Both the position numbers and the translations under genes were made by a program. From NCBI GenBank assembly GCA_964635905.1, contig CAZWPK010000004.1, positions 91,012-145,841 on the forward strand: DNA of 54,830 nt, in the 5' to 3' direction. Source of the stretch: an uncultured Pseudomonadales bacterium. GTDB taxonomy: Bacteria; Patescibacteriota; Microgenomatia; UBA1400; UBA12028. Below, piece by piece: positions 4,815 to 18,964 of this stretch. The notes beneath the pieces are model-generated. The model searched no databases and was not told where the DNA came from. It saw only the letters and a program-made list of their open reading frames with translations. The stretch's first letter is position 1; the number at the start of each line of letters is the position of its first letter.

Positions 4815-4898
4815 GCCGCGGTGGTGAAACTGGCATACACGAGAGACTTAAAATCTCTTGCTCGCAAGGGCGTGAGGGTTCGACCCCCTCCCGCGGCA
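4815..4898 (+). tRNA. tRNA-Leu(TAA)
   Basis: Acceptor GCCGCGG/CCGCGGC, anticodon arm AGAGA-CTTAAAA-TCTCT, long variable arm, TTCGA T-loop; CCA not encoded. Confidence 0.95.
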
Positions 4899-4904
4899 CA
4901 TGTT

Positions 4905-4981
4905 CGGGGTGTGGCTCAGATGGCTAGAGCGCCTGCTTTGGGAGCAGGAGGTCCCCAGTTCGAGTCTGGGCACCCCGACCA
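4905..4981 (+). tRNA. tRNA-Pro(TGG)
   Basis: Acceptor CGGGGTG/CACCCCG, CCTGC-TTTGGGA-GCAGG, GTTCGAGT, ends ACCA. Confidence 0.97.
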
Positions 4982-6504
4982 TTTAAGACAAGTGGGTCTT
5001 TGAGCAGGGTATCAAAGGGTTCTTTTAGCCTGTACATCTTCACTTTTTCTTCATCAATCCATAAGTTCAAGAAAATAATTCTGACAATTTGGTCTTTGAC
5101 TTCGGGTGTGCCTGCTTTGACAGATAATCCAGCGTTTTTAGACAAGTTCAAGAAGTCTTCCAGCGTTAACACGTCCTGTTCTAGGTCAGGCATGGCTTCC
5201 TTGAGTTTGGTGATTTCTGCCTCCAGTTGGGACTTTTGATTGTCCAGTTCTTTCACTCGTTCCTCACCAATCTTTCTGACTGTCGAGCCTATTTCCTGCT
5301 TGATGACTTGGAGAGCGGTTGTTCGCAACTCATTGTCAGTAGCTTTCAGGTGTCCTTGCTTGGAGTGCAGTTCAACCTCAAGTTTGGCTTTCTGCTTAGT
5401 TAGCACGTCAGTCATTTCTTGCAGGTAAATTTGATAATCTTCCTCAGTGAAGTTGAGTCCATCCTTGAGAAACTCATACAACCAATCAAGCACAACTTTC
5501 ACTCTGACTGATTTCTTAGCTCGTTTGCACCCTGTGGTTTCACACCTGAAGTTAAGATACCGTTTGCCACTCCCACCAGTGGATGGACCAACAGTCATAT
5601 TGCCATCACAAAACGAACATTTTACAAAGGACTTAAAGGGGTAAAAAGTATAGCGGTGAGTGTTAATTGGCATCAGTCGAGTTCTAGTTTGGGTTTGGAT
5701 TTGGTAAAACTCTTCCTCACTGACCGCAGGTACAAAGTCATACTTGGTACGCAAATCAATCTGGTCATCAGCTTGTACCAATACACCAAAGTAAAACGAA
5801 TCTCGGAAGATGATACTCAAGATACGCTTGTCCATGTTCACTTTGCGTCCTGTAGCTTTAATCAAGCGGTGGTAGCCAAGAGAGTTGATTGTTTGGGCAA
5901 TTTTTTCCAGTGACTCACCTTTAAGCTTCATCTGCCATGCTTCCTTGATAAGTTCATGGTTATTACCATCAGGTTGATATCTACCAAACTCATCAATCAC
6001 ATATCCATGTTTAGGAATGTGACTCCTGCCTTCACTAGCTTTTCTGACCATCCCACGAGTCACGTCAGCAGAGAGTTTGTCTGAGTATTGTTTGGAAAGC
6101 ACAAAAGCAAGTCCCAGCATCATCAAACCATTTGCATCTCGAGTGAAGTGGTGAGTAACAAACTTTAAGTCCTTGATGATGTCCTCATCAATCATATCAA
6201 TGACTTCGCCACCTTCTTTCATGTTGCGAGCAAGGCGGTCAGGATTCCAGCACAGAATCCCATCGTATTTACCAACCTGAATATCTTTGAGCATCTGCCG
6301 AAAAACAGGTCTTTTACCAGGTTTCTTAGCGGACTTCTGTTCTGTCAGTGGAGAGCCAACAATGGTCAAATTGAGGCGTTTAGCAAGCTGGAGACACTCG
6401 GCTATTTGGTCAGGAATAGACCGAGCTTGACGCTCTGGGTCATCGGTAGATTTGCGAGCGTAGAGGACATATTTGAGCTTGGTGTGGTCAACTTCATACT
6501 CCAT
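4924..6504 (-). CDS. large serine recombinase 1 (526 aa in integrated state; last codons read antisense through tRNA-Pro)
   Basis: Resolvase catalytic YARKST..RQ..SI..Q, DRLARN, recombinase domain, Zn ribbon CSFC...CETTGC, coiled coil; ATG at 6504 matches paralog start. Confidence 0.95.
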   Translation of the reverse strand: MEYEVDHTKLKYVLYARKSTDDPERQARSIPDQIAECLQLAKRLNLTIVGSPLTEQKSAKKPGKRPVFRQMLKDIQVGKYDGILCWNPDRLARNMKEGGEVIDMIDEDIIKDLKFVTHHFTRDANGLMMLGLAFVLSKQYSDKLSADVTRGMVRKASEGRSHIPKHGYVIDEFGRYQPDGNNHELIKEAWQMKLKGESLEKIAQTINSLGYHRLIKATGRKVNMDKRILSIIFRDSFYFGVLVQADDQIDLRTKYDFVPAVSEEEFYQIQTQTRTRLMPINTHRYTFYPFKSFVKCSFCDGNMTVGPSTGGSGKRYLNFRCETTGCKRAKKSVRVKVVLDWLYEFLKDGLNFTEEDYQIYLQEMTDVLTKQKAKLEVELHSKQGHLKATDNELRTTALQVIKQEIGSTVRKIGEERVKELDNQKSQLEAEITKLKEAMPDLEQDVLTLEDFLNLSKNAGLSVKAGTPEVKDQIVRIIFLNLWIDEEKVKMYRLKEPFDTLLKDPLVLNGRGAQTRTGDLLLPKQAL

Positions 6505-6661
6505 CACACTCGATTATCCCACGAAAAAACAAAAACAGGAGTCCACACCATGCTTTTCCTGTACTCCAACCAGCCCCCCCTTGACCCGTTTCTGCCACAG
6601 CAGGGGTGGCACTACAAACTATCAAAACCTAACATTAACTAATATATAGAAAGAGCCTATA
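6505..6661 (-). promoter_or_regulatory. conserved 157-nt region upstream of LSR1 with two hairpins and a -10-like GATAAT
   Basis: Aligns by eye to 17208-17364; hairpins at 6594-6610 and 6536-6561. Confidence 0.55.
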
Positions 6662-6715
6662 GTATATGACTTTTGTGGTGATGTCACCGTACTCACTGCG
6701 TTATATAATACCTAC

Positions 6716-7162
6716 ATGGGAATCAACGAACGAACAGCCAATATTGACTTCTTGTCTTCTACATTTGATGACATACTCACAATGTATCCTGCTGAGTCAT
6801 TAAAGTTGATGTTCCGTGGTGCTAGAAATGACAACTCGCCTTCTGGTGGAAACTGGTGGTCTGAAGATGCCTATTATGCATTGGGTTGCAGCAGTGATAA
6901 CAGACTTTTTGTAACAGCTGTACCGATAGATTTAATTGCGGAGTTGCAAGAAACTAATCAACTGACTAATGAAAGCGACCACGAAGGAAACAAATGGAAA
7001 TTTAGAAGATTCAATTTACCTCATCGACAGGTTAATGATGCCGAACTGACTGAGTTACTTAGTCAAGCTCGTATAACTAAGCTAGGTGCAACGCGAGCTA
7101 TAAAAACCAGACTTGGAACACAGGCAAGAATTGATTTCTCAAAAAGTGTTATTGTCGGGTAA
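6716..7162 (+). CDS. cargo hypothetical protein, weak ADP-ribosyltransferase-like motifs
   Basis: 148-aa ORF; LMFRG...GNWWSEDAYYA pattern; no counterpart in element 2. Confidence 0.55.
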   Translation: MGINERTANIDFLSSTFDDILTMYPAESLKLMFRGARNDNSPSGGNWWSEDAYYALGCSSDNRLFVTAVPIDLIAELQETNQLTNESDHEGNKWKFRRFNLPHRQVNDAELTELLSQARITKLGATRAIKTRLGTQARIDFSKSVIVG

Positions 7163-7171
7163 ACGGCATGA

Positions 7172-7441
7172 CTACTGTTTTAACAGTTCAAACACCTTCT
7201 TCTTGATATACCTGAAAAAGGCTAAAAGCCGATTCTTCTTGAGTAAGACATACAGAATCTCACGTCCCTGACTGTCCCGCATTGCTATTGCATTTCTGAC
7301 ACCATCCTCACCGAGCTTCTGTTGCTCGTCTATAGCTTTGAGTGCCATCATGATATCAGCACGATTGGCATGAGGTCGTTTGAGCTGTTCTGTCAGTAAT
7401 CGCTTATTCAGTGCTAGGTCTTCTTCAAAGGAAAGTGCCAT
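7172..7441 (-). CDS. conserved small element protein (89 aa), candidate directionality factor/regulator
   Basis: 53 of 89 residues identical by manual alignment to 16424..16711; shared upstream GGTACAAT..CGGTCAAATTATG. Confidence 0.85.
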   Translation of the reverse strand: MALSFEEDLALNKRLLTEQLKRPHANRADIMMALKAIDEQQKLGEDGVRNAIAMRDSQGREILYVLLKKNRLLAFFRYIKKKVFELLKQ

Positions 7442-7479
7442 AATTTGACCGCTATTGTACCTTTTTTACCCGAGAAAGC

Positions 7480-7626
7480 CTAGTACAGGTACACCAACCC
7501 CGCATTGTTTTCACCACGAATGAAGTAGTCATCAGAGATATCCGATTGTGTAACAATTTGAAATGGCTTCCAAAATGCTACAATCGCATTGGCAAGGCGT
7601 TCAAAGTTTGTCGCCTTCACTCGACA
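7480..7626 (-). other. displaced C-terminal coding segment of LSR1 (CRVKATNFERLANAIVAFWK...GENNAGLVYLY*)
   Basis: Ungapped 48-codon match (21/48 identical) to 16239..16385; in frame with LSR1 across the GTCG core. Confidence 0.7.
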
Positions 7627-7660
7627 CATATCGCGTTCTTGAGAGCTTGTAAACAGCTCT
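7609..7660 (+). repeat. junction A: element-1 left arm + CGACAC core + cassette right arm
   Basis: 7609-7626 is the exact reverse complement of 16239-16256 (18 nt); 7622-7660 matches 8179-8217 at 34/39. Confidence 0.85.
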
Positions 7661-7697
7661 TGCTTCTTGTTTTTCTTCCTATAAAATATCCCTAATT

Positions 7698-8117
7698 ATG
7701 TCAAACGTTGAAGCAACTAAATCAAAGTTAGCTGGAAAACATTTCCTGGTGGTGGAAAGTGGCGATGCTGATTGGAAATTTGTATTTGGGAATTACTTTG
7801 ATGTAATGGATGCTACTTTCGACTATGTAGATGAAGAAGATTTTTTAGGATCAGGGATGGATGAGGTTGATACTTATGTAGGAAAATTTGATGGCATCGT
7901 CTTACATTTAGTAGCAGGTGGTTATTTCGATACTTATAAAGAAAAAGCTTTGGAAACAAAACTGAAAGGACTTCCAGTAGTTGTTACAGCATCAGCAACA
8001 TTTACGCCTGACGAAAAAGTAATTGAATTAAACTCACTGGGTATTGGAGTTGTAATAAAAGGCAAAGACTTTAACTTCAACTCAATTTTGGAATTGTTAG
8101 CTGCGCAGATGAGCTAA
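7698..8117 (+). CDS. stand-alone atypical receiver (CheY-like) protein
   Basis: FLVVE (b1), FDGIVLHL (b3, His at the Asp position), PVVVTAS (b4), VVIKGK (b5). Confidence 0.65.
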   Translation: MSNVEATKSKLAGKHFLVVESGDADWKFVFGNYFDVMDATFDYVDEEDFLGSGMDEVDTYVGKFDGIVLHLVAGGYFDTYKEKALETKLKGLPVVVTASATFTPDEKVIELNSLGIGVVIKGKDFNFNSILELLAAQMS

Positions 8118-8133
8118 AAACATAGCAACTTAT

Positions 8134-8217
8134 AGGATCATTGATCTGGAAGTGAGTTATTATTTCATTCCATAGATCCGACACATATTGTGTTTTTGAG
8201 AGTTTGTAAACAGCTTT
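8134..8217 (+). repeat. junction B: hairpin left arm shared with C + CGACAC + right arm shared with A
   Basis: 8134-8184 vs 8692-8742 = 46/51; 8179-8217 vs 7622-7660 = 34/39. Confidence 0.9.
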
Positions 8218-8284
8218 GAATTGCTGGTCGTAAATTCTTCTTCCCGACTTTAGTATACGGTAATATAATTGCTGGAGATGATAT

Positions 8285-8683
8285 ATGTCTGCAGAAAAAC
8301 CTGTTGTAGTACTTGTCGATAACAATAAGACTTATCTCGATACAGTGGCTTTGTTTTTTCAACAAACTGGTATGCATGTGGTTTGTTTTTTATCTGATCT
8401 GGGTAGCAATACAGAAGATTTGGTAGATCGGATACAAAAGAATAGTCCCGACATTGTTGTAACAGGTGTTCGTAATCGAATCGACAGAGATGATGGAGAT
8501 ATGAGTGGGATAGTATTGGCAAATGCTCTAAAATCCAAAGGTATTAAAGTTTTAGTAACATCTTCACCAGAATACCAAGGAATAGCTGAGCAAAATGGTT
8601 TACCTTTTATCGGAAAGCATCTTGGAGCACCTGAGTTTGTCAGTCATATTCAAGCACTTATAGGTCTATCCTTTAAATCATAA
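8285..8683 (+). CDS. stand-alone atypical receiver (CheY-like) protein
   Basis: VVLVDNN (b1), SPDIVVTGV (Gly at the Asp position), MSGIVLANALK, VLVTSS, FIGK. Confidence 0.75.
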   Translation: MSAEKPVVVLVDNNKTYLDTVALFFQQTGMHVVCFLSDLGSNTEDLVDRIQKNSPDIVVTGVRNRIDRDDGDMSGIVLANALKSKGIKVLVTSSPEYQGIAEQNGLPFIGKHLGAPEFVSHIQALIGLSFKS

Positions 8684-8691
8684 AATGCTAA

Positions 8692-8756
8692 AGGACTACT
8701 GATCTGGAAGTGAGTTACTATTTCATTCCATAGTTCCGACACTTTTGATATTCTTG
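8692..8756 (+). repeat. junction C: hairpin left arm + CGACAC + diverged right arm
   Basis: 46/51 to junction B left arm; TTCTTG at the same offset after the core as in junction A. Confidence 0.85.
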
Positions 8757-8903
8757 GAAAATCCTGTTAGATTTGACTACGATTACCATACGCTTATAAT
8801 CAGTGCTGACTCTCCTAACATACTAGAAGTAGTCAAGATGCCATTAATAAAGTGGTGATCAAAATACCAATTGTTCAAATTTTTGTTTAAGGAGATTTCT
8901 CAT

Positions 8904-9341
8904 ATGGGCCCAGTAGAACGTAGAGACGTCACAATTGTAGATACGAACGTTGACCCGAGACTGGCAGAGGTCACTCAGGTAACTATACTAGAACAACTCA
9001 ATGATCGTAAATTTCTTGAAGAACTAATTGCTCAAGGAAGAATTGTCTCTCACGAATTCGGACAGCAGGGGTGGGCAGCCGATATGCGACCTGTGTGCAG
9101 AGTGACGATCTCTCCTATTTCCGAACAACACTATTCTAGAAATGAGGAAGATAATCCTTATGATAGGAGTATCATCTGCGTAATAGTCGATGGAAAAAAA
9201 TATCCTTGCACTACATTCGTTGTCGATGAAGAAATTGGAACCTTTATTAGAGGCATGCTTAGAAGGCGACGTCTTTTGAAGCCTTTCAAAGAGTTTGCTT
9301 CGGGTCTGAAAGATGGACTGCGTTCTGCATTCCGAGGTTAA
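8904..9341 (+). CDS. hypothetical protein
   Basis: ORF 8871..9341; ATG 8904 preceded by AAGGAG. Confidence 0.65.
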   Translation: MGPVERRDVTIVDTNVDPRLAEVTQVTILEQLNDRKFLEELIAQGRIVSHEFGQQGWAADMRPVCRVTISPISEQHYSRNEEDNPYDRSIICVIVDGKKYPCTTFVVDEEIGTFIRGMLRRRRLLKPFKEFASGLKDGLRSAFRG

Positions 9342-9386
9342 CGGAATCATTGCAATTTTTAGGATTTGCAACGCTATACTACGAAA

Positions 9387-10073
9387 ATGGTAACCATTAT
9401 TCATGGTGATGATGAACTCAAAGTCCACCAAAACCTTTCTGCATTATTAAAGACCTACCGTGCGGATAACTTCACAATTGTTCGTTTAGATGCCAAAGGA
9501 CTATCAATCTCCGACTTAGAAACAGCAGTGGGAACTGAGGAGCTTTTTGCCGTAAAAAAAGTTGTCGTGATTGATCGAATTCATGCGCTGCCAAAAAGCA
9601 AGCAGAAAGATCTTCTTTTAAGTTGGCTCTCAGACTTTAAGTCTTCTACTACGGATGTGATTTTAGTCGAACATAAAATTCTTACTCCCACACAATTAAA
9701 AAAATTTCCAAGCGCTGATGTCAGATTATCTAAACTTCCCTCACTACTGTTTTCGTTTTTAGAGACGATTGGAACACAGCCAGCATACAAAAGTGTAACG
9801 CTGTTTCATCAGGTGCTAGAAAATCAGGAGCCAGAGCAAGTCTTTGTGATGATTATTCGTCAGTTTCGCTTGTTACTGCAATACAGTAGTGATGGAGTGT
9901 ATAACGGACCTCCATTTGGTCGATCAAAAATTCAAAAACAGTCGGATCGGATACCAAGAGAAAAACTTTTGCTGCTTTACAACCGACTACTACAAATCGA
10001 TTTGGGACAAAAAACCTCGACATCCGTCTTATCACTAACCCAAGAAATTGACCTTTTCCTGCTAGAGATCTAG
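9387..10073 (+). CDS. holA: DNA polymerase III delta subunit (short form)
   Basis: MVTIIHGDDE, EELFAVKKVVVID, IIRQFRLL, LLQIDLGQKTS; TATACT 6 nt before ATG. Confidence 0.8.
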   Translation: MVTIIHGDDELKVHQNLSALLKTYRADNFTIVRLDAKGLSISDLETAVGTEELFAVKKVVVIDRIHALPKSKQKDLLLSWLSDFKSSTTDVILVEHKILTPTQLKKFPSADVRLSKLPSLLFSFLETIGTQPAYKSVTLFHQVLENQEPEQVFVMIIRQFRLLLQYSSDGVYNGPPFGRSKIQKQSDRIPREKLLLLYNRLLQIDLGQKTSTSVLSLTQEIDLFLLEI

Positions 10074-10175
10074 AATCGAGAAGTGTTTCTTACGCAGTTC
10101 TTAATTTAAATAGTGCACAATAGTTTCGGTTGTGGTTGATGATCAGTCATCTATCCGTCTATACAAGGAGGCAGC

Positions 10176-11591
10176 ATGCAAGTTGTTCCAGTTCCATCAG
10201 TGATTTTTCGTGGATACGATATCCGCGGAGTAGCAGGGAGTGAATTATCAGAGGATGTGTACTATACCCTGGGACGCGCATACGCCACGTTTTTAACGCA
10301 GCGACGAATTAAAGAAGCAAGTGTCGGTCGAGATAATCGTCTGACAAGTGAAGTGTACGCAAAAGCCTTTATTCAAGGTCTCAATGAAGGTGGAATCGAT
10401 ACCATCGACATGGGCTTGTCTCTCTCTCAAATTGTCTATTATTCTTCCTATGAATTCAAAACGAAGGGAAGTGCGATGGTGACTGCTTCCCATAATCCCA
10501 AAGAGTATAACGGACTTAAGCTTGGTGTTGGGTATTCCGATACCATGATCACGGAAGAGATTGCTTACATGAAAGATCTCTGTGACAAAGGAGAATTTTC
10601 TACGGGCAGTGGTACGAACCGCAGTGTGGATGTCTACCCATCCTACAAAGAAACAGTCCTTAAACTATTTTCTTTGAAGAAAGCCTGGAAGGTCGTCGTC
10701 GATACCTGTAACACAACCTCCGGGAAGTTTTATCCCGACTTACTGCGATCCGCCGGATGTGAAGTCATTGAACAAAATACAACCTTGGATGGCAACTTCC
10801 CCCTAGGTGTTCCGGATCCAACAGAGGTAGAAGTCCTTGAACGACTTGCAACGGGTGTAAAAAATGCTGGGGCTGATATTGGTTTTGCCTATGATACCGA
10901 TGGTGACCGAATGGCCGTCGTCGATGATAAAGGGAACACTTTGTGGATGGACTCCATTGTGGCACTTTTTTCAAAAGATGTCTTGGACTTCATGCCAAAG
11001 GCTCCGATTGTCTACAACACGCTCTGTTCTCGTCAAGTCACGGAAGCGATTGAAAAAGCTGGTGGAACACCAGTGATGTGGATGACCGGTCATTCGTTTA
11101 TCAAAGCGAAGATTAAAGAAGTACGCTCTCCCTTTGGAGGGGAATTGTCTGGCCACATTTTCTTCATGGATAACTTCTTTGGACATGATGATGGGGCCTA
11201 TGCGAGTTTGCGACTCCTTCAATATTTGGAACGAAAGAATCAAACCTTGAGTGCAGCAGTCAGTGAACTTTCGATCTACGTCAGTAGTCCGGAGATCAAA
11301 TTTGGATTGGCAGACGACATCAAGTTCAAATTTATCGATACCGTGATCAAAGCTGAATTTGAGAAGCGATGGCCGGATGGTAAGTACACCACCATTGATG
11401 GGGTTAGAGTAGATCTAGCTGATCAAATGGCAATTGTTCGTGCCTCCCAGAATGGACCCTACATTACGGTCAAGTTTGAGGGGAAAACACAAGAAATCTA
11501 TGATGCCTTAAAGAAAGAATTAAAAGCGATTTTATCCGCTCATAGTGAAATTGACTGGTCAAAGGGTGTGAATACGCACGCCTTAGATTAA
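10176..11591 (+). CDS. phosphomannomutase/phosphoglucomutase
   Basis: IFRGYDIRG, TASHNP, AYDTDGDR, GGELSGH. Confidence 0.95.
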   Translation: MQVVPVPSVIFRGYDIRGVAGSELSEDVYYTLGRAYATFLTQRRIKEASVGRDNRLTSEVYAKAFIQGLNEGGIDTIDMGLSLSQIVYYSSYEFKTKGSAMVTASHNPKEYNGLKLGVGYSDTMITEEIAYMKDLCDKGEFSTGSGTNRSVDVYPSYKETVLKLFSLKKAWKVVVDTCNTTSGKFYPDLLRSAGCEVIEQNTTLDGNFPLGVPDPTEVEVLERLATGVKNAGADIGFAYDTDGDRMAVVDDKGNTLWMDSIVALFSKDVLDFMPKAPIVYNTLCSRQVTEAIEKAGGTPVMWMTGHSFIKAKIKEVRSPFGGELSGHIFFMDNFFGHDDGAYASLRLLQYLERKNQTLSAAVSELSIYVSSPEIKFGLADDIKFKFIDTVIKAEFEKRWPDGKYTTIDGVRVDLADQMAIVRASQNGPYITVKFEGKTQEIYDALKKELKAILSAHSEIDWSKGVNTHALD

Positions 11592-11654
11592 GGGAACCGA
11601 AGACAGATGGCTCCTGTACACGGTCCTCTTGTAGGATCGTGTACAATTGGACCT

Positions 11655-12926
11655 ATGGACAAACCAACAATCCTCATCTTGGCTGGGGGAGAGAATAGCC
11701 GCTTTTTTCCATTAAATACCACGACGCATAAAGGTGCCCTGACACTACTGGGAAAACCGTTAGTTATTCGTACGCTGGAGAACTTAGAAAAGCACGGATT
11801 TCCCCATGTCGTCATGATTGTCTCGAAGAAAGATTTTGATGGGAATGGACTGTCGGGATTTATTAAAGAATTTGACTTTAAACTGAAAATTGATTTTGTG
11901 CTTCAGCCAGATGCTCAGGGAATGGGAAATGCAGTGCTGTGTGCTAAAGACAAGATCAAAGGCTCCTTTGGAGTTGTTTTCCCCTCATCGTTAGATGCAG
12001 GGGAGCTTATGGAAACGTTGATGAAACAGGCAGGAAACGGTGGAAGTCTTGCGGTTCGCTATACCCAAGAGCCTTGGCTGTATGGAATCGTCACCCTCGA
12101 TGGTCAACACATTACCTCGATTGTGGAGAAACCAACAAAAGGGACGGAACCCTCCAACCTTATGGCAACCGGTGTCTATTATCTTTCCCATGAATTCTTA
12201 GAATTCTTGCAGGTCGCACCACAGACACAATACAACTTTGAAGAAAGTCTGGACAAGTTTGTTCAAGTGTATACCGTCACTGCAGTGGAACAATCGCACA
12301 CGTTGCCGTCGCTCAAATACCCTTGGCATCTCTTTGCGTTTCAACAGGTGCTTTTTGCTGACCTTCCCAATTATATTTCTCCCTATGCAACGGTTGCCAA
12401 GACTGCAGTCATCGATGCGAAGAATGGACCCGTCTATATTGAGAATGGAGCGACCATTGGCCATGCCGTAAAGATCGTCGGTCCTGCCTATATTGGAAAA
12501 GATGTGTTCATCGGTGATTTCTCATTGATTCGACACTCCTCCTTTGAGCAAGGTTCTTCGGTTGGAGTCCATTCGGATGTGACCCGATCCATCATCATGG
12601 AAGATTCGTCCATGCACAATGGTTTCCTAGGAGATTCCATTGTGGGTCGCGATGTGCAGATTGGAGCCGGGCTGATTACTTCGAACAAGCGCATGGATCG
12701 AGCCCCTATTGAAGTTGTGGTCAAAGGTAATAAAGTAGCTAGCCGTTTAACCGGACTTGGAACCGTGATTGGTGATCATGCCAAAGTTGGAGTACGGGTT
12801 ACCATCATGCCGGGAAAATTTGTAGGATGTCGAGCAATTGTGTACCCGGGCATAACGGTGTGGGAACATGTCCCTCATGACCATCGTGTAAAATCCCCGC
12901 AGACTATTGAATTGGTGGAACGATAA
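11655..12926 (+). CDS. sugar-phosphate nucleotidyltransferase with hexapeptide-repeat C-terminus (GlmU-like, archaeal-type architecture)
   Basis: ILAGGENSRFFP, HKG, VEKP, left-handed beta-helix repeats, GTVIGDHAKVG; ATG 11655 after TACAAT. Confidence 0.85.
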   Translation: MDKPTILILAGGENSRFFPLNTTTHKGALTLLGKPLVIRTLENLEKHGFPHVVMIVSKKDFDGNGLSGFIKEFDFKLKIDFVLQPDAQGMGNAVLCAKDKIKGSFGVVFPSSLDAGELMETLMKQAGNGGSLAVRYTQEPWLYGIVTLDGQHITSIVEKPTKGTEPSNLMATGVYYLSHEFLEFLQVAPQTQYNFEESLDKFVQVYTVTAVEQSHTLPSLKYPWHLFAFQQVLFADLPNYISPYATVAKTAVIDAKNGPVYIENGATIGHAVKIVGPAYIGKDVFIGDFSLIRHSSFEQGSSVGVHSDVTRSIIMEDSSMHNGFLGDSIVGRDVQIGAGLITSNKRMDRAPIEVVVKGNKVASRLTGLGTVIGDHAKVGVRVTIMPGKFVGCRAIVYPGITVWEHVPHDHRVKSPQTIELVER

Positions 12927-12929
12927 TCT

Positions 12930-13727
12930 ATGGTTGATCCAACATCTGCAAAAGCTTTCCTCTTTGACGTGGACAAAACATTAACGAACTCCTCTCGAGA
13001 ATGTACGCCTGCAACCCAAGCAGCCATAAAAAAATTGCGAAGTCTGGGGAAAAAGGTGGGAGTGTGTACCGGTCGACACTACACGACCTTACATCAAGAG
13101 ATTTTACCCTTGTTTGAACCAACTGACATCCATGTCGTATCCGGAGGGGCACAAGTCATTTCAACGGATGGAATCGTAGTGTGGGAGCAATGTATTCCCC
13201 GAGCTACTGTCGATCAGCTTCTTCGTTCGCTCGATGGTCGTGCCACAAGAATTTACGTTCAAGAGGGGACGTCGATCTATGGAAACGCTCAAGCGATTGC
13301 CGAGTGGAAGATCGTGATCGGAGCGAAACACCAGCTATATATTAAACCGCTCTCAGAGCTTCCAGCCGTAGACATACCCATTATCGTGGTGCATGAGATC
13401 GATGAAACGGTCTTTAATTCCATCGTAGAGCATCCAGATTTAAATGCGAAATACATGCAAAATTACACTGGAAAGTATTATGCAGACATCACTGCAGCCG
13501 GTGTAAGTAAAGAAACGGGAGTTCGTGAATGGTGTACACGTCAGAATGTATCCCCAACTGAAGTCGTTGGTTTTGGTGATAGTGCAAATGACATCGAGTT
13601 TCTAACAATGGTCGGCTTCGGTGTGGCAATGGGAAATGCTACCGAGGACGTAAAAAAGATTGCACAAGAAGTCACCTTGACGCTGGATGAGGATGGGATT
13701 GCTGCTTGGGTAAATGCCCATTTCTAA
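12930..13727 (+). CDS. Cof-type HAD hydrolase
   Basis: FDVDKTL, CTGR, GVSKETG, GFGDSANDIEFL. Confidence 0.92.
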   Translation: MVDPTSAKAFLFDVDKTLTNSSRECTPATQAAIKKLRSLGKKVGVCTGRHYTTLHQEILPLFEPTDIHVVSGGAQVISTDGIVVWEQCIPRATVDQLLRSLDGRATRIYVQEGTSIYGNAQAIAEWKIVIGAKHQLYIKPLSELPAVDIPIIVVHEIDETVFNSIVEHPDLNAKYMQNYTGKYYADITAAGVSKETGVREWCTRQNVSPTEVVGFGDSANDIEFLTMVGFGVAMGNATEDVKKIAQEVTLTLDEDGIAAWVNAHF

Positions 13728-13763
13728 GGTATTTTAAGTGAAGATTACAGTTGAAAGGAAATT

Positions 13764-14843
13764 ATGTCGACGATTCTAGATTCTCGTGATGAGTTACAAA
13801 AAAATGATCCAAAATTTGCCATTCGCTCGCTGGAGCAACTGGGTAGCCAGGTAAAGCAAATCTGGGAACTCACTTCAGCGTTGCAATTGGATACCTCGTA
13901 CTCATCGATAAAAAATGTGGTTGTCGCTGGTATGGGAGGATCTGCATACGGCACACATGTGATCACCACCGTATTTAAAGAACAATTATCAGTCCCAGTG
14001 ACGGTAGTTCCCGATTACACGGTACCCGCCTATGTCGGTCAGGATACTTTAGTGATTGTGTCCAGTTATTCTGGCTCCAGTGAAGAAACCTTAGCTGCAG
14101 CAGAGGATGCCCGAACTAAGGGAGCTAAGATTATCGGTCTGACTTCTGGTGGTAAATTAGGCGCCTGGTTAACTGAACATTCCTTTCCATTGATTCAATT
14201 TGATGGAAGTTTTAATCCCTGCGGAGTAGCCCGATTCGGGTACGGTTATTCGCTCTTTGGTCAGATGGCAATTTTTGCAAAAGTTGGTCTAATCACGATA
14301 AAGCAATCCGACGTTGATGCCATTCTAGCAGTAATCGCAGATGCGCAATTACGCTGTAGCGCTGATATCCCACAAGATGACAATGAGGCAAAATTATTGG
14401 CATTTGAACTAGTACAGCGCGCCCCTGTATTTACAGTGGCAGAGCATCTGGAAGGGATTGCACATGTGGTTGCCAATGCGATGAATGAAAATGCTAAAAC
14501 GTATTCGGAGTATCGCAGCATCCCAGAACTCAATCACCATCTCTTAGAGGGATTTCAATTTCCACAAACGAATGAACAACACTATCTTTTTCTCACCACG
14601 CTATCTTCCCGATATGCAAAGTCAAACCAACATCGAATGGAACTAACGCAAGAGGTGTTAGAAAAGCATCATATTGAATGGAAAGAACTTCCGGTAAACG
14701 GGAAATCAAAACTAGAAGAAGTCTTTTCCTATTTAATGGTCGGTGTCTATGCATCCTATTATTTGGCGGCTCTCTTGCAGGTAGACCCTGCGGGAACCCC
14801 AGAAGTAGAATGGTTTAAGAAGGAGTTGGCAGCAAAGGTATGA
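13764..14843 (+). CDS. bifunctional phosphoglucose/phosphomannose isomerase (SIS fold)
   Basis: VVAGMGGSAYG, VSSYSGSSEET, TSGGKL, ENAK, PELNHH. Confidence 0.9.
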   Translation: MSTILDSRDELQKNDPKFAIRSLEQLGSQVKQIWELTSALQLDTSYSSIKNVVVAGMGGSAYGTHVITTVFKEQLSVPVTVVPDYTVPAYVGQDTLVIVSSYSGSSEETLAAAEDARTKGAKIIGLTSGGKLGAWLTEHSFPLIQFDGSFNPCGVARFGYGYSLFGQMAIFAKVGLITIKQSDVDAILAVIADAQLRCSADIPQDDNEAKLLAFELVQRAPVFTVAEHLEGIAHVVANAMNENAKTYSEYRSIPELNHHLLEGFQFPQTNEQHYLFLTTLSSRYAKSNQHRMELTQEVLEKHHIEWKELPVNGKSKLEEVFSYLMVGVYASYYLAALLQVDPAGTPEVEWFKKELAAKV

Positions 14844-16012
14844 TCCTACGTCCCTATTTCATCGTTCCCAAATTGATTCCGCAACCAACCTGGGGAGGAG
14901 ACTACATTCGTACCTATAAAGGGATCGCTGATTCCCAAGTGACTAGTCAGCTTATTGGTCAGTCCTATGAGTTAAGTGTGGATTCCATGCTGTCTGAGGG
15001 CCTAGATTCAGCCGTAGTGCCGGTGGAGCTGGGTGATCCAAAAACAGGGAATACGACGAGATTGATAGGGAATGCCGATCAACTTTTTTCATTGCAATCG
15101 CTCATTGATCAGAATCCCGAGGAAACCTTAGGAGCCAAGTCGGTTCAAGTCCATGGAAAACGAATGAATGTCTTAATAAAGTTTACACAGGCTAAAGGAA
15201 ATTCGTTTCAAGTTCACGTGATCCCTGGGAAGGAATTTGGTCATTGGAAACCCAAACCTGAAAGTTGGTATTACTTTGAGCCTGGAAAAGCAACGGTGGG
15301 GTTGCACCAACCCACACTTGAAAGACTCGCTTCATACAAGAATGCTTGCGAAAAGATCGCCCAGTTTGCAGAGCAGATGCAGGAGGAAGTAGCAAGTAAA
15401 AACAAATCGATTGATGCAGCGAAGAAACTGCTTTTGGAACTTGTTTCTACCGAAAATCCATGGCAATACGTCAATGAAGTGATGGTAGAGAAAGGGGCAG
15501 TGATCGATCTATCCGGCGGCGGAATCCATCATTCCTGGGAAGAAGGGGAGTCTATTCCGCTAGGGAATGTCGTGTATGAAGTGCAAGTTAATGTCATGGA
15601 TAACGAGTGCACGATTCGCTCCTTTGATAAGGGAAAAATTGGTTCGGATGGAACTGTTCGTCCAGTTCACATACATGACTATTTCACCGCTCTTAATACC
15701 GATCCTAGCCACAACCAAGTCTCAAAAATTCTGCAACAACCGGAGACTAGGGATGATGATGGCGCGCAGCATACGGATTTGTTTTCAACTCCCTATTATT
15801 CAAGTAAAGAGATCGCGTTTTCGGGAACATATCATGGAACTACGAACACCAGTTTCCACCATGTGTTTGTGAAAGAAGGCAGCCTCCAATGCAAATCAGG
15901 AGAAACCTCGTTACAAGCTGCAAAGGGAAGCTCTTTGTTTATTCCAGCTGAAGTTACTGACTACTCTCTTCTCTCAGATTCAGCCACTGAAGTGATAATC
16001 ACTTCAGTCTAG
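14840..16012 (+). CDS. class I mannose-6-phosphate isomerase-like cupin protein
   Basis: PTWGG, QSYELS, LIKF...SFQVH, KPESWY, GGIHH, YEVQ. Confidence 0.75.
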   Translation: MILRPYFIVPKLIPQPTWGGDYIRTYKGIADSQVTSQLIGQSYELSVDSMLSEGLDSAVVPVELGDPKTGNTTRLIGNADQLFSLQSLIDQNPEETLGAKSVQVHGKRMNVLIKFTQAKGNSFQVHVIPGKEFGHWKPKPESWYYFEPGKATVGLHQPTLERLASYKNACEKIAQFAEQMQEEVASKNKSIDAAKKLLLELVSTENPWQYVNEVMVEKGAVIDLSGGGIHHSWEEGESIPLGNVVYEVQVNVMDNECTIRSFDKGKIGSDGTVRPVHIHDYFTALNTDPSHNQVSKILQQPETRDDDGAQHTDLFSTPYYSSKEIAFSGTYHGTTNTSFHHVFVKEGSLQCKSGETSLQAAKGSSLFIPAEVTDYSLLSDSATEVIITSV

Positions 16013-16204
16013 TCTGATTTTATTGAAGGTACTTTTTTACAACGAACGAAGTTCTTGGGAATAGGGTTGATTCTCTTCTTCTTCTTCTTCTTTGCCAGAT
16101 CGAAGAATACAATCTCACGGGCTGAAAGTGCTTTCTTATTACTGCTCTATATTATTTTTGTCTGTTTTGAGATTGTGTTTGTACTGTAGCAAGAACTAAA
16201 AAGT

Positions 16205-16271
16205 GAGAGGATGTTTATGCCCTCGAAAGCGTGCTCTATGTCGAGTGAAGGCGACAGACCTTGAACGCCTT
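16205..16271 (-). repeat. junction D: element-2 left arm + CGAC core + diverged cassette-type right arm
   Basis: Minus strand AAGGCG-N12-CGCCTT-CACT-CGACA followed by GAGGGCATAAACATCCTC, similar to GAGAGCTTGTAAACAGCTC of junction A. Confidence 0.75.
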
Positions 16272-16385
16272 ACAGAAGTGATTTTAGCACGCTGGCAGAG
16301 AGTCGAGTTCACTATTCCCGAATTGATGAATACTGATAACTTCACTCATGGTGAAAATAAGATAGGGCTATCGTATGTGTACTAG
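16239..16385 (+). other. displaced C-terminal coding segment of LSR2 (CRVKATDLERLTEVILARW...GENKIGLSYVY*)
   Basis: Ungapped homolog of 7480..7626; the Met of copy 1 is CTA here; in frame with LSR2 across GTCG. Confidence 0.7.
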
Positions 16386-16423
16386 GATTACTCGACGGAA
16401 ACGGGTACAATGACGGTCAAATT

Positions 16424-16711
16424 ATGCCATCCACACCAGAGGAGAGACTAGCTGAAAACAAGCGATTATTACAGGAGATGCTCAAGAATCCTAAGTATCA
16501 GCGGGCGGAACTTGTCGAAGCACTCAAAGCCGTAAACGAGGAACAAGCTCTCGGTGTCGATGCTGTCCGTAACGCGATAGCCATGCGTAATGCGAAAGGA
16601 CAAGAGATTTTGTATATGCTCCTCAAGAAAAACCGAGTCCTCACCCTTTTCCATAAGATAAAGAAGTGGGTCTTTGAACTAGTGTATAATATGCCTATTA
16701 AATCAAAATAA
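16424..16711 (+). CDS. conserved small element protein (95 aa), candidate directionality factor/regulator
   Basis: Paralog of 7172..7441 (NKRLL, ALKA, VRNAIAMR, EILY.LLKKNR). Confidence 0.85.
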   Translation: MPSTPEERLAENKRLLQEMLKNPKYQRAELVEALKAVNEEQALGVDAVRNAIAMRNAKGQEILYMLLKKNRVLTLFHKIKKWVFELVYNMPIKSK

Positions 16712-16720
16712 GGAGCCAAT

Positions 16721-17173
16721 ATGTCAGAAATCCTTTCAGATTTTGGTAAAGAAGCAAATGAGACACCCAAAGTGACAGCAGATGCTCAACCGCAACCAGC
16801 TACAATTTCTCCAAATAGATTGCAGAGCATTGCAGACTTGATGGCTCAACCTGCTGAATCTACGGATACTCCTGTTGCGAAGACTGAGACACCGAAAGCA
16901 GAAATCTCTGAAGTTTTAGTTCTCAAGCAAGGTTTGAATGCTGTCATAATGCCTGAACTTAGAGACGTATTTAAAGACGAGAGATTTGGTGACTCATTTG
17001 GTGACGTGAGTGCAGAGGTTGCAAGAGATAGGCTCCAAAAGTTTCTTGATGAAATCCAAAAACAAGGTGGTAAAGTCCTTTCTACTGTTAGCCAAATGAC
17101 CAATGAAAATCCTAGTGAAATGAATGGTGATGACCCAAAGCTGACTACGTTCTTTATAGTAGAAAAATCGTAA
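16721..17173 (+). CDS. cargo hypothetical protein
   Basis: 150-aa ORF with AGGAG ribosome-binding site; Pro/Ala/Thr-rich N-terminus. Confidence 0.7.
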   Translation: MSEILSDFGKEANETPKVTADAQPQPATISPNRLQSIADLMAQPAESTDTPVAKTETPKAEISEVLVLKQGLNAVIMPELRDVFKDERFGDSFGDVSAEVARDRLQKFLDEIQKQGGKVLSTVSQMTNENPSEMNGDDPKLTTFFIVEKS

Positions 17174-17207
17174 AGACTTACGCTAAAGTAGGTAGCATCT
17201 TTTATGT

Positions 17208-17364
17208 TATAGGGCTACATTCTCCTGTTAGGTATTGTTAGATGTTTGAAGTCTCTAGCCCTACCCCTCTTGTGGCTAAAACACCCTAAACCAGTGGCTT
17301 TTGCTATAGGAAGAGCGTGGTGTGCATACCTGATTTTGTTTTTCCTAGTAGTACAATCAGCGGT
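17208..17364 (+). promoter_or_regulatory. conserved 157-nt region upstream of LSR2 with hairpins and -10 TACAAT
   Basis: Aligns to 6505-6661; TACAAT 17352-17357, 7 nt before ATG. Confidence 0.55.
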
Positions 17365-18945
17365 ATGGATTACGAAGTGGATACCTCCAAACTCAAATAC
17401 GTCATGTATGTCCGTAAGAGTACCGATGACCCAGAGCGCCAAGCTCGCTCCATCCCCGACCAGATTGCGGAGTGCCAGGAGCTCGCTAAACGCCTCAATC
17501 TTACTATCGTTGGGAGGCCTATTGAGGAGACCAAATCAGCCAAGAAACCTGGGAAGCGTCCATTGTTTCGGCAGATGCTTAGAGACCTGACGGCTGGTAA
17601 ATATGACGGTATCCTTTGTTGGAATCCTGACCGCCTGGCCCGAAATATGCGTGAGGGTGGTGAAGTCATCGACATGATTGATGAAGACATCATCAAGGAC
17701 TTAAAGTTTGTAACACACCACTTCACCAAGGATGCAAACGGCTTGATGCTTCTGGGACTTGCCTTTGTCCTCTCCAAGCAATACAGCGACAAATTATCAC
17801 AAGACGTGACTCGTGGGATGGTCCGTAAAGCCAGTGAAGGTCGAAGCCATATACCCAAGCATGGATATGTCATTGATGACAACGGGAGATATCAGCCAGA
17901 TGGACCGAACTTTGACCTCATCAGACAGGCCTGGCAGATGAAATTACACGGTGAGCCACTCGAAAAGATTTCCAATACTATCAATGGTCTTGGGTATCAT
18001 CGCCTCATCAAGTCCACAGGTCGTAAGGTCAATATGGACAAGAGAATCTTGAGTGAATTATTCCATGACTCCTTCTACTTTGGGATGTTGGAGCAAGCGA
18101 GTGAGACGGTTGACCTGCGCACCAAATATGACTTTGTTCCTGCTGTGACCGAGCAAGAGTATGCTCAAGTCCAAGCTCTGACCAGAAGCCGTATCATCCC
18201 ACTCGTCTCACATCGCTTTACCTTCTACCCATTCAAGACGTTTGTTCGCTGTGCATTCTGTGACAACAATATGACTGTTGGTCCTTCGACTGGGAGTACA
18301 GGCAAACGGTACTTAAACTTTCGCTGTGAGACTCCAGAGTGCAAACGTATCAAGAAATCTGTACGGGTAAAAGTAGTCCTCGATTGGTTGTATGCGTTTC
18401 TCGCTGGTGGACTCAACTTCACCGAGGCAGATTACAAACAATATCTAGAGGAGATGACAGATGTCATTACCAAGCAACGAGCGACGCTTGAAGGTGAACT
18501 GCACGCCAAACAAGGATTACTCAAGACGACTGATGCCGAACTCAGGACCACTGCCCTCCAAGTCATCAAACAAGAAGAAGATTCAACTGTCAGACGTATC
18601 GGTGAGGAGCACGTCAAGGAACTGGAGCAACAGAAAGCGCAGCTAGAGACAGAGATTGCCTCTATCAAACAGACCATGCCTGATGTTGCACAGGATGCAC
18701 TTACCTTAGAAGATTTCTTGAACTTGTCAAAGAATGCGGCAGAATCAGTCAAAGCAGGCACTCCAGAAGTCAAAGACCAAATTGTCAGAATTATCTTCTT
18801 GAACTTATGGATTGATGAAGAAAAAGTAACGAAATATCAGGCTAAAGAGCCGTTTCATTCCCTGCTTGCTAACAGGCAACTACCTACTAGTCGGGGTGAC
18901 TGGACTCGAACCAGCGACCTCTTGCACCCCATGCAAGCGCGCTAG
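17365..18945 (+). CDS. large serine recombinase 2 (526 aa in integrated state; tail read antisense through tRNA-Pro(GGG))
   Basis: YVRKST catalytic motif, CAFC...CETPEC Zn ribbon; roughly 75-80% identical to LSR1 by eye, same length. Confidence 0.95.
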   Translation: MDYEVDTSKLKYVMYVRKSTDDPERQARSIPDQIAECQELAKRLNLTIVGRPIEETKSAKKPGKRPLFRQMLRDLTAGKYDGILCWNPDRLARNMREGGEVIDMIDEDIIKDLKFVTHHFTKDANGLMLLGLAFVLSKQYSDKLSQDVTRGMVRKASEGRSHIPKHGYVIDDNGRYQPDGPNFDLIRQAWQMKLHGEPLEKISNTINGLGYHRLIKSTGRKVNMDKRILSELFHDSFYFGMLEQASETVDLRTKYDFVPAVTEQEYAQVQALTRSRIIPLVSHRFTFYPFKTFVRCAFCDNNMTVGPSTGSTGKRYLNFRCETPECKRIKKSVRVKVVLDWLYAFLAGGLNFTEADYKQYLEEMTDVITKQRATLEGELHAKQGLLKTTDAELRTTALQVIKQEEDSTVRRIGEEHVKELEQQKAQLETEIASIKQTMPDVAQDALTLEDFLNLSKNAAESVKAGTPEVKDQIVRIIFLNLWIDEEKVTKYQAKEPFHSLLANRQLPTSRGDWTRTSDLLHPMQAR

Positions 18946-18964
18946 CCAACTGCGCTACACCCCG
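18891..18964 (-). tRNA. tRNA-Pro(GGG)
   Basis: Minus strand CGGGGTG/CACCCCG, CTTGC-ATGGGGT-GCAAG, GTTCGAGT; CCA not encoded. Confidence 0.96.

Follow-up and report, generated by a model that had tools for sequence, protein, structure and literature searches.

In the stretch of DNA analysed here (54,830 nucleotides, positions 91,012 to 145,841 of contig CAZWPK010000004.1 in assembly GCA_964635905.1; hereafter the window), a large serine recombinase gene, LSR1, appears to be split by its own crossover site. The gene lies in element 1 (E1), a unit of 2646 bp at positions 4980-7625 that is inserted at the 3' end of tRNA-Pro(TGG). We propose, with a probability of roughly 0.85, that the element's attachment (att) site, attP, is located inside the open reading frame (ORF) of the integrase, 47 codons before its native stop, and that integration into the 3' end of tRNA-Pro exchanges the C-terminal tail of the protein. 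An earlier note on this DNA had claimed the same, i.e., that the integrase gene is split by its crossover site and that the tail alone is swapped, and the claim is borne out by contiguous homologues, by a related site without the element (locus L010) and by a tail that behaves as coding sequence.

LSR1 runs on the minus strand from the ATG at 6504 to the stop at 4926..4924 and encodes 526 amino acids (aa), ending in ...LVLNGRGAQTRTGDLLLPKQAL before the stop (with wider context, ...LKDPLVLNGRGAQTRTGDLLLPKQAL before the stop). The final 17 codons of LSR1 are antisense to the acceptor and T arms of tRNA-Pro(TGG). The orphan tail frame of E1, entered at 7626 on the minus strand, reads CRVKATNFERLANAIVAFWKPFQIVTQSDISDDYFIRGENNAGLVYLY and then stops. 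Codon 509 of LSR1 is Gly, and its last two bases are the GT of the GTCG core; joining the two halves of E1 at GTCG is in frame and gives an ORF of 556 aa. The coordinates, sequences and arithmetic given earlier for this arrangement (antisense read-through of LSR1, an orphan frame 2646 bp away, GTCG in the same codon phase, 556 versus 526 aa) were correct. GTG starts giving proteins of 527 aa and 542 aa were rejected as artefacts of ORF listing; the real starts are the ATG at 6504 and, for the integrase LSR2 of a second element (E2), the ATG at 17365. In the proposed mechanism, recombination would join integrase codons 1-509 to antisense tRNA, yielding the 526-aa isoform with an arbitrary 17-aa end, and would leave the native 47-codon tail stranded ~2.6 kb off, at the opposite end of the element. 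The 556-aa ORF would be restored when the element is excised as a circle.

The features of E1 and its borders are as follows.

4815 to 4899, plus strand: tRNA-Leu(TAA), by ARAGORN.
4905 to 4981, plus strand: tRNA-Pro(TGG), by ARAGORN; its 3' end is the conserved half of the E1 attB (the host site) and is now part of attL.
4924 to 4979, minus strand: antisense-tRNA extension of the integrated isoform, R-GAQTRTGDLLLPKQAL and stop.
4976 to 4979: core CGAC (GTCG in the integrase sense), the tRNA/E1 junction, with the crossover inside these 4 bp, as placed by comparison with L010.
4980 to 6504, minus strand: LSR1 body, codons 1-508 and the first base of codon 509 (Pfam, AlphaFold).
6505 to 6715: intergenic region with divergent promoter-like sites for LSR1 (minus strand) and ORF148 (plus strand), weak, from a consensus scan.
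6716 to 7162, plus strand: cargo ORF148, 148 aa, with no homologue among the cargo of E2 and of the elements at L008 and L009.
7172 to 7441, minus strand: ORF89, 89 aa, common to all four complete elements (alignment, 53-82% identity).
7442 to 7479, minus strand: spacer that separates the stop of the tail from the start of ORF89, highly conserved in a by-eye alignment of six elements.
7480 to 7623, minus strand: displaced 47-codon tail of LSR1, of the same length and with the same stop in six integrated copies.
7622 to 7625: core CGAC, the element/host junction (attR), where the similarity to the flank paralogue at 8179 begins exactly.
7626 to 7672, plus strand: B' flank of the host, in which a hairpin resembling a terminator lies at 7640-7662 (flank paralogue, site comparison, motif scan).

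We compared E1 with sites that lack an element. Locus L010 (Ca. Woesebacteria Gw_Eff_bin_538) shares 91% DNA identity with the window over the flanking ribosomal-protein genes and contains the identical tRNA-Leu/tRNA-Pro(TGG) pair, followed by CGAC and then ACTTTTT, with no adjoining integrase. The site reads ...CACCCCGAC up to the junction and ACTTTTTATAC beyond it. A site without the element, for which the earlier note had proposed a search, is therefore present in a close relative. The window and L010 are collinear as far as CGAC and diverge immediately beyond; therefore, the left junction of E1 is fixed at CGAC. In addition, tRNA-Pro genes without adjoining integrase sequence were found at L011 (Pro TGG), L012 (Pro GGG) and L014 (both). 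For the other end of E1, a paralogous host flank at 8179-8215 showed 89% identity to 7622-7658, with the similarity starting exactly at the C of CGAC. The hairpin at 7640-7662 is probably the terminator of tRNA-Pro, moved 2.6 kb off by the insertion, as judged from its sequence and position. This hairpin has a T-run and lies on the plus strand directly after the E1 attR, and a degraded copy follows the repeat at 8179.

Integrated copies of the same layout were found at tRNA-Pro(GGG) in GCA_964519905.1 (L008) and at tRNA-Pro(TGG) in GCA_964633875.1 (L009), and four metagenome contigs (L090-L093) contain an attR of the same layout; L093 duplicates L092, and L092 matches the attR of L009. All of these share the GTCG core, the codon phase, the tail length of 47 codons and the stop, and the tail ends in GLVYLY before the stop. 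Close relatives differ in whether they carry the element. On these sequence comparisons, we regard the 2.65-kb unit as a genuine insertion.

If the tail belongs to the native gene, homologues should carry it contiguously, and the earlier note had suggested a database search with the fused protein. The fused 556-aa query gave 1256 matches at E < 1e-10. Full-length homologues with the tail contiguous at the exact join position were present, namely P0028 (558 aa, ...LTGGPTETTLELFLPLAEAILEHWNPESFDEKLLQGEAANEGYPVRDYVY), P0104 (556 aa, ...LSGTEQQTQLELFLEEFLSCILANWDPKPGDIELTESHNPKNYPDYLY) and P0113 (552 aa, ...VSGREEATNLEPLILSLLTHWDCTKFDEKLLTIYPGYTEVSMGFTY). The DNA of all three keeps the arm motif GACA-NNN-YTTGAAC, and P0113 also keeps the GGTCG core. 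An exhaustive hidden Markov model search with a 107-position profile spanning the junction returned at least 20 further clusters (50% identity) that match without a break from the β-strands ahead of the junction on into the tail; the consensus of these clusters reads ...EPF..LLK......GR-x-x-[A/T]-x-x-[L/F]-E...L...[I/L]L..W[D/N/K]..., with a hydrophobic or aromatic end, usually [Y/F]-x-[Y/F/L]-COOH.

The native tail was present in 3 of the 120 best family matches. Most of the others among these 120 stop 13-41 residues past the EPF motif, typically as ...SRG plus three residues or as ...RTRTxDL..P.RAL. Six tail-less cases were examined at the DNA level (E1, E2, L008, L009, P0050 and P0086), and all six read into antisense tRNA. 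P0050 reads into tRNA-Pro(GGG), where its stop is the TGA of the TTCAAAT T-loop, and P0086 reads into tRNA-Leu(GAG); more than one tRNA serves as a target for the integrase family. The P0113-type tail was also found in orphan form, as P0130. As far as these sequences indicate, the tail is part of the native gene, and the majority of entries in databases represent integration-state chimeras.

The surroundings of some homologues were observed in addition. The P0028 loci (L004-L007) belong to a larger region that resembles a mobile element and contains Replic_Relax, DUF87 ATPase, NYN, methyltransferase and SLFN/AlbA genes, which may be a plasmid or conjugative element carrying an unrecombined attP. 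At L096:1-5617 and L098:1462-5605, the region upstream of the integrase, which faces away from the tRNA, contains more genes than it does in the 2.65-kb elements. P0050, whose tRNA-Pro(GGG) next to recA is the locus of E2, has an N6/N4 methyltransferase gene and a ResIII/restriction-endonuclease gene upstream of it.

We then considered whether the tail is under coding constraint. Tail codons 1-9 coincide with the att arm and are almost invariant at all three codon positions; therefore, they are constrained at the DNA level. Codons 10-47 showed no indels, a fixed stop, a pairwise ratio of nonsynonymous to synonymous substitution rates (dN/dS) of 0.15-0.80, and mean pairwise differences of 0.35, 0.22 and 0.39 at codon positions 1, 2 and 3, respectively. 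This pattern indicates that the tail is under real but moderate purifying selection. A Trp and the C-terminal Tyr were invariant in nine aligned tails, including those of distant homologues, and the last residue was hydrophobic or aromatic in the wider set. The motif GR-x-x-[A/T]-x-x-[L/F]-E...L..W... is conserved family-wide, and the tail is maintained across >50% integrase divergence. Coding constraint on the tail, whose lack was to have spoken against the split-gene claim, is therefore present. Judged from sequence and structure prediction, the tail resembles a flexible peptide that has a short helix and ends in a docking or recognition motif; its C-terminus is not ssrA-like (-LAA).

All recognised domains of the integrase (Resolvase, Recombinase, zinc ribbon and coiled coil) lie within the 509-aa body according to Pfam and AlphaFold, in agreement with the earlier claim that integration leaves them in place. 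In the E1 integrase, the Resolvase domain (PF00239) matched at E = 4e-23 over residues 13-160, and Y15, R17, K18 and S19 (the catalytic Ser19) were invariant in 79 homologues, as were C296, C299, C321 and C326. The Recombinase domain (PF07508) scored 33.1 bits against a cut-off of 21.1 over residues 183-276. The zinc ribbon (PF13408) scored 20.4 bits for E1, under the cut-off of 25.3, and 28.6 bits for the homologue P0028. AlphaFold predicted long antiparallel coiled-coil helices at 354-401 and 408-437, with a predicted local distance difference test score (pLDDT) of mostly 80-95 in the body. The closest PDB match was SPbeta SprA (E = 7.5e-6). A tblastn search of phage and plasmid collections with the fused protein returned no characterised relative, the matches being at most ~25% identical.

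The att sites were reconstructed in the integrase sense from the four complete elements. attP consists of a variable arm inside the integrase coding sequence, GTCG and AGTGAAGGCGACARACYTTGAACGCC, and attB consists of a variable host flank, GTCG and GGGWGMCHRGACTCGAAC, the last being antisense tRNA. GTCG is the identity common to all four half-site combinations, and therefore the 2-bp crossover lies within it. GAC is located at positions 10-12 from the core in attP and attB alike, while T[CT]GAAC is located at 18-23 in attP and at 13-18 in attB, i.e., 5 bp nearer the centre in attB. Placement of the ZD motif 5 bp inward in attB is the distinction between attP and attB in large serine integrases (PMC3783163), and the shift in our reconstructed sites matches this rule. 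The inverted-repeat symmetry of attP is weak and inconsistent between elements. With CG as the centre, E1 and L008 would show GACAA symmetry; such a centre, however, is palindromic and agrees poorly with the fact that all copies have one and the same orientation. The predicted circle junction of E1 would read CTTAAATG-GTCG-AGTGAAGG (in longer form, ...CTTGTCTTAAATG-GTCG-AGTGAAGGCGACAAAC...), and the restored host site would read ...GGGCACCC-CGAC-ACATATCGCG....

With the crossover in the tRNA sequence ...CCCCG-A-C, the tRNA is left unchanged up to and including the discriminator base and the C that follows this base. The earlier note was thus right that the tRNA body and discriminator are left intact; its further point, that the element supplies the final CA of the encoded CCA, proved incidental, since CGAC is followed by AC in L010 and by TA in E2.

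Several points weigh against the proposed split. The flank of L010 differs downstream of the tRNA, so that the right junction of E1 rests on att-arm conservation and on the flank paralogue. One arm per att site is conserved; the attP arm in the coding sequence and the host B' arm vary between elements. The contiguous homologues are ~50-55% identical to LSR1, and no sign of circularity was found in the contigs that carry them; the 2.6-kb P0113 contigs (L001, L002) are collinear, not permuted and without terminal overlap. A scan of metagenomes with the att-arm pattern GTCGNGNGNAGGCGACANAYNTTGAAC returned four loci, all attR, and no attP junction or contiguous gene for the close subfamily (>70% identity). 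A search with a profile of the tail alone gave only orphan ORFs of 46-60 aa and no contiguous close homologue. In the AlphaFold model of the fused 556-aa protein, residues 503-552 had a pLDDT < 50, with one short helix at 516-525, and the middle of the tail is loosely constrained. Finally, the integrase P0157 (L095:6001-6996), located in a chromosomal setting, is truncated at its N-terminus and has a contiguous tail. It has 331 aa, lacks the catalytic domain, has a native-type tail and lies among housekeeping genes (hisS, upp); therefore, a contiguous tail does not always mark a free circle.

What the exchange of the tail does is a separate question. Only the unintegrated element can make the tail, and yet the tail is conserved; for this reason, we consider it most likely, from the pattern of conservation, that the tail serves a job specific to the free form, such as integration competence, protein stability or turnover, or restraint of excision. 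The integrated isoform is probably active because it keeps all catalytic and DNA-binding domains. That the change of isoform truly alters the direction of recombination or the stability of the integrase, which the earlier note had raised as a possibility, can be put forward only tentatively. Broader still, the swap of tails could act as a directionality or commitment switch for the whole, mostly Patescibacterial, family of tRNA-targeting serine integrases, an idea that we consider doubtful. Under such a switch, the full-length enzyme, made by the circle only, would be integration-competent or short-lived, and the integrated isoform would have altered excision competence or stability. The precedents of engineered fusions of an integrase with an RDF (recombination directionality factor), and of mycobacteriophage repressors, make a switch plausible. 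If true, it would mean a self-contained sensing of integration state that partly or wholly replaces a separate RDF in nearly gene-free elements of 2.6 kb.

The strongest rival, which could well be right at somewhat under even odds, is that the overlap is neutral: the tail would be an ordinary, weakly constrained extension, its exchange would have no regulatory effect, and a separate RDF would set direction as in other large serine recombinases. No structure is predicted with confidence for the tail, constraint on its middle is loose (dN/dS up to 0.8), and every known functional domain lies upstream of the junction. Moreover, the peptide added on integration ranges from ~4 to >30 residues across the family and hence has no function of its own. 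However, the position of the tail, its length class, the Trp and the hydrophobic or aromatic C-terminus persist at ~50% integrase identity, and a tail that can be expressed from the free form only should have some free-form function under selection.

An improbable reading is that the integrase becomes inactive when it loses its tail, like the 'suicidal' integrases of the archaeal SSV1 type, so that the element would be locked unless full-length integrase is supplied in trans. A conserved tail could be essential, supply in trans is conceivable for two related elements in one genome, and the same logic has been described for archaeal integrases (PMC8371274). Against this, the integrated isoform has an intact catalytic domain as well as intact Recombinase, zinc-ribbon and coiled-coil domains; the integrated genes of E1 and E2 stay open at 79% aa identity, as do many other integrated copies, which points to continued selection; and presence of the element is variable between close relatives.

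Far less probable is an independent gene of ~46 aa that starts at the conserved GTG, with an integrase that ends in or near the tRNA and contiguous homologues that arose as secondary fusions. The earlier note had stated that the orphan tail has no conserved start codon; this holds for ATG but not for GTG, which is conserved at tail codon 3, inside the att arm, and gene callers annotate 46-aa ORFs there (P0121, P0124, P0127). Conservation of this GTG is explained at the DNA level by the invariant att arm. Furthermore, the host DNA upstream of the orphan tail is unrelated at every site, so that neither a ribosome-binding site nor a promoter is conserved there; frame and phase agree with those of the integrase at every junction; and the tail is fused at precisely this position in at least 23 independent lineages. 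Chance or an assembly artefact, i.e., a coincidental frame or a chimeric contig of a metagenome-assembled genome (MAG), is negligible: a 4-bp match such as GTCG is expected many times by chance in 2.6 kb and means nothing alone, but the same core, phase and stop, together with the same length of the tail, are found again in L008, L009 and L090-L093, the architecture is present in two copies in the window and in independent NCBI, JGI and Logan assemblies, and both the site without the element and contiguous genes were found.

The second copy in the window, E2, is 2650 bp long (16240-18889) and inverted relative to E1. Its features are as follows.

16219 to 16243: host B' flank (16219-16239) and core GTCG (16240-16243).
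16242 to 16385, plus strand: displaced tail exon, 47 codons and stop.
16424 to 16711, plus strand: ORF95, the 95-aa homologue of ORF89 (alignment).
16721 to 17173, plus strand: cargo ORF of 150 aa, unrelated to the cargo of E1.
17365 to 18945, plus strand: integrated isoform of LSR2, 526 aa, from ATG 17365, its last 17 codons antisense to tRNA-Pro(GGG).
18890 to 18964, minus strand: tRNA-Pro(GGG), with core GTCG at 18890-18893, the attL of E2.

E1 and E2 share 74-77% DNA identity, and LSR1 and LSR2 share 79% aa identity. The tail of E2 (CRVKATDLERLTEVILARWQRVEFTIPELMNTDNFTHGENKIGLSYVY and stop) has the same 47 codons, phase and stop position as that of E1, as expected from the earlier observation that it is conserved without indels. 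Each element consists of an integrase, a conserved ORF of ~90 aa and one variable cargo ORF, with no recognisable phage, replication or transfer genes. The best explanation is that E1 and E2 are minimal integrative elements which, although related, were acquired independently of each other.

ORF89 and the cargo ORFs had no match in Pfam, PHROGs or PADLOC, and no repressor gene was recognised in the element with Pfam and PHROGs. By position alone, ORF89 is a candidate RDF, and it may have this role, that of a regulator or another. The spacers at 7442-7479 and 16386-16423 are more strongly conserved than the coding sequence of the tail across six elements (...TTCTYGG..AAAAC.GGTAYAAT..CGGTCAAATTATG). 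The 38-nt spacer before ORF89 holds a TACAAT -10-like box ~12 nt upstream of the ATG; therefore, ORF89 may have its own promoter, and the spacer is likely, from its sequence, to be a promoter or operator of the ~90-aa ORF.

The flanking genes include rpsD, rpoA, holA, PGM, nucleotidyl transferase, HAD hydrolase, PGI, MPI, recA, RNase Y and uvrA, and the nearest PGM loci are in MAGs of Candidatus Woesebacteria, Pacebacteria and Patescibacteria. By gene content, the window is a Patescibacteria (Woesebacteria/Pacebacteria-like) chromosome. A phage genome had been considered on account of the seven tRNAs in the window, and was ruled out by the genes for ribosomal proteins, rpoA, recA, RNase Y and uvrA. 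We also rejected 4980-18890 as one composite element or integrase-bounded segment because the intervening 8.6 kb are housekeeping genes; this region between E1 and E2 (holA, PGM, nucleoside triphosphate transferase, HAD hydrolase, PGI, MPI) is syntenic in relatives without the elements. Inverted around these 8.6 kb, E1 and E2 are in principle substrates for homologous or integrase-mediated inversion, and none is visible in the synteny of relatives.

The flank beyond E1 showed further repeats. Three direct copies of CGACAC(A/T)T... occur at 7622, 8179 and 8737 with a spacing of 557-558 bp (window 7622-8762). The copies at 8179 and 8737 are each preceded by a conserved hairpin-like block of ~62 nt (8117-8178, 8675-8736), which is unlike the integrase att arms and is absent from the loci with which it was compared. 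The single ORFs inside the two repeat units (7698-8117, 8285-8683) are unrelated to each other. The region 7622-8762 thus looks as if cassettes of one gene each had been arrayed one after another downstream of tRNA-Pro(TGG). At L010 (8015-8570), tRNA-Pro(TGG) is followed by a block of ~535 bp with one ORF (8082-8401) and, at ~8527-8548, a remnant like the T-arm of tRNA-Pro(GGG) (CTGAGTTCGAATCCAGTCAC), and the flank beyond is homologous by eye to window 8741-8810. This by-eye comparison supports the idea that the flank of tRNA-Pro(TGG) may be a hotspot for small insertions.

We compared the E1-type integrases with known systems. Like the large serine recombinases Bxb1, phiC31, A118/LI and SPbeta SprA, they have Resolvase and Recombinase domains, a zinc ribbon with an inserted coiled coil, and short att sites without long direct repeats, with a small shared core (GTCG) and a ZD-like motif 5 bp inward in attB. 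Unlike them, they are very distant in sequence, their target is the 3' end of a tRNA read antisense, attP lies in the integrase ORF so that the protein differs between the free and integrated forms, and the elements are only ~2.65 kb long.

The archaeal 'suicidal' tyrosine integrases of the SSV1/pTN3/pT26-2 type, called exclusive to archaea in a 2021 review (PMC8371274), likewise have the att site in their own gene, which is split by integration into a tRNA and restored by excision. Those are tyrosine recombinases (PF16795) in which the split detaches Int(N) from the catalytic Int(C) and abolishes activity (PMC8371274), whereas the E1-type is a bacterial serine recombinase of a Patescibacteria host that, by sequence and model, would lose only a 47-aa tail beyond the known domains. 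In mycobacteriophages BPs, Brujita and Charlie, the integration-dependent immunity described by Broussard et al. 2013 involves, according to the summary in PMC6109161, an attP near the 3' end of a gene, and integration alters the C-terminus of the protein and, in the phages, its stability. In that summary, the gene is a repressor, the integrase is a tyrosine integrase and the piece removed is an ssrA-like degradation tag; in the E1-type, the interrupted gene is that of the integrase itself, and a degron in the tail is hypothetical.

A streptococcal element, IME_Spy2096_SNF2, has a serine integrase with a recombination site within its own gene, as mentioned in one sentence of a survey of integrative and mobilizable elements (PMC5357655). 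It is likened to the E1-type by this description only; its target is snf2 rather than a tRNA, and its isoforms and their conservation were not analysed there (PMC5357655). In an engineered fusion, an RDF attached to the C-terminus of phiC31 integrase sets the direction of recombination (PMC5737554). Such fusions are artificial and the fused RDF drives excision, whereas the E1-type has a natural tail on the form that must integrate. In our literature search, we found no account of a family of serine integrases that targets tRNA genes and has its tail swapped upon integration.

The self-interrupting topology would therefore occur here in bacteria, in another recombinase superfamily and in a family of >1000 members, which contradicts its exclusivity to archaeal tyrosine integrases (PMC8371274). 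For annotation, most database entries of the E1-type integrase family would end in tRNA-antisense peptides. The split spares every known domain and would produce a natural pair of isoforms tied to integration state. This pair may serve as a handle on how C-terminal extensions affect direction or stability, which is relevant to integrase-based genome engineering. Finally, these results define 2.65-kb tRNA-targeting mobile elements in Patescibacteria, a phylum whose mobile elements are poorly known.

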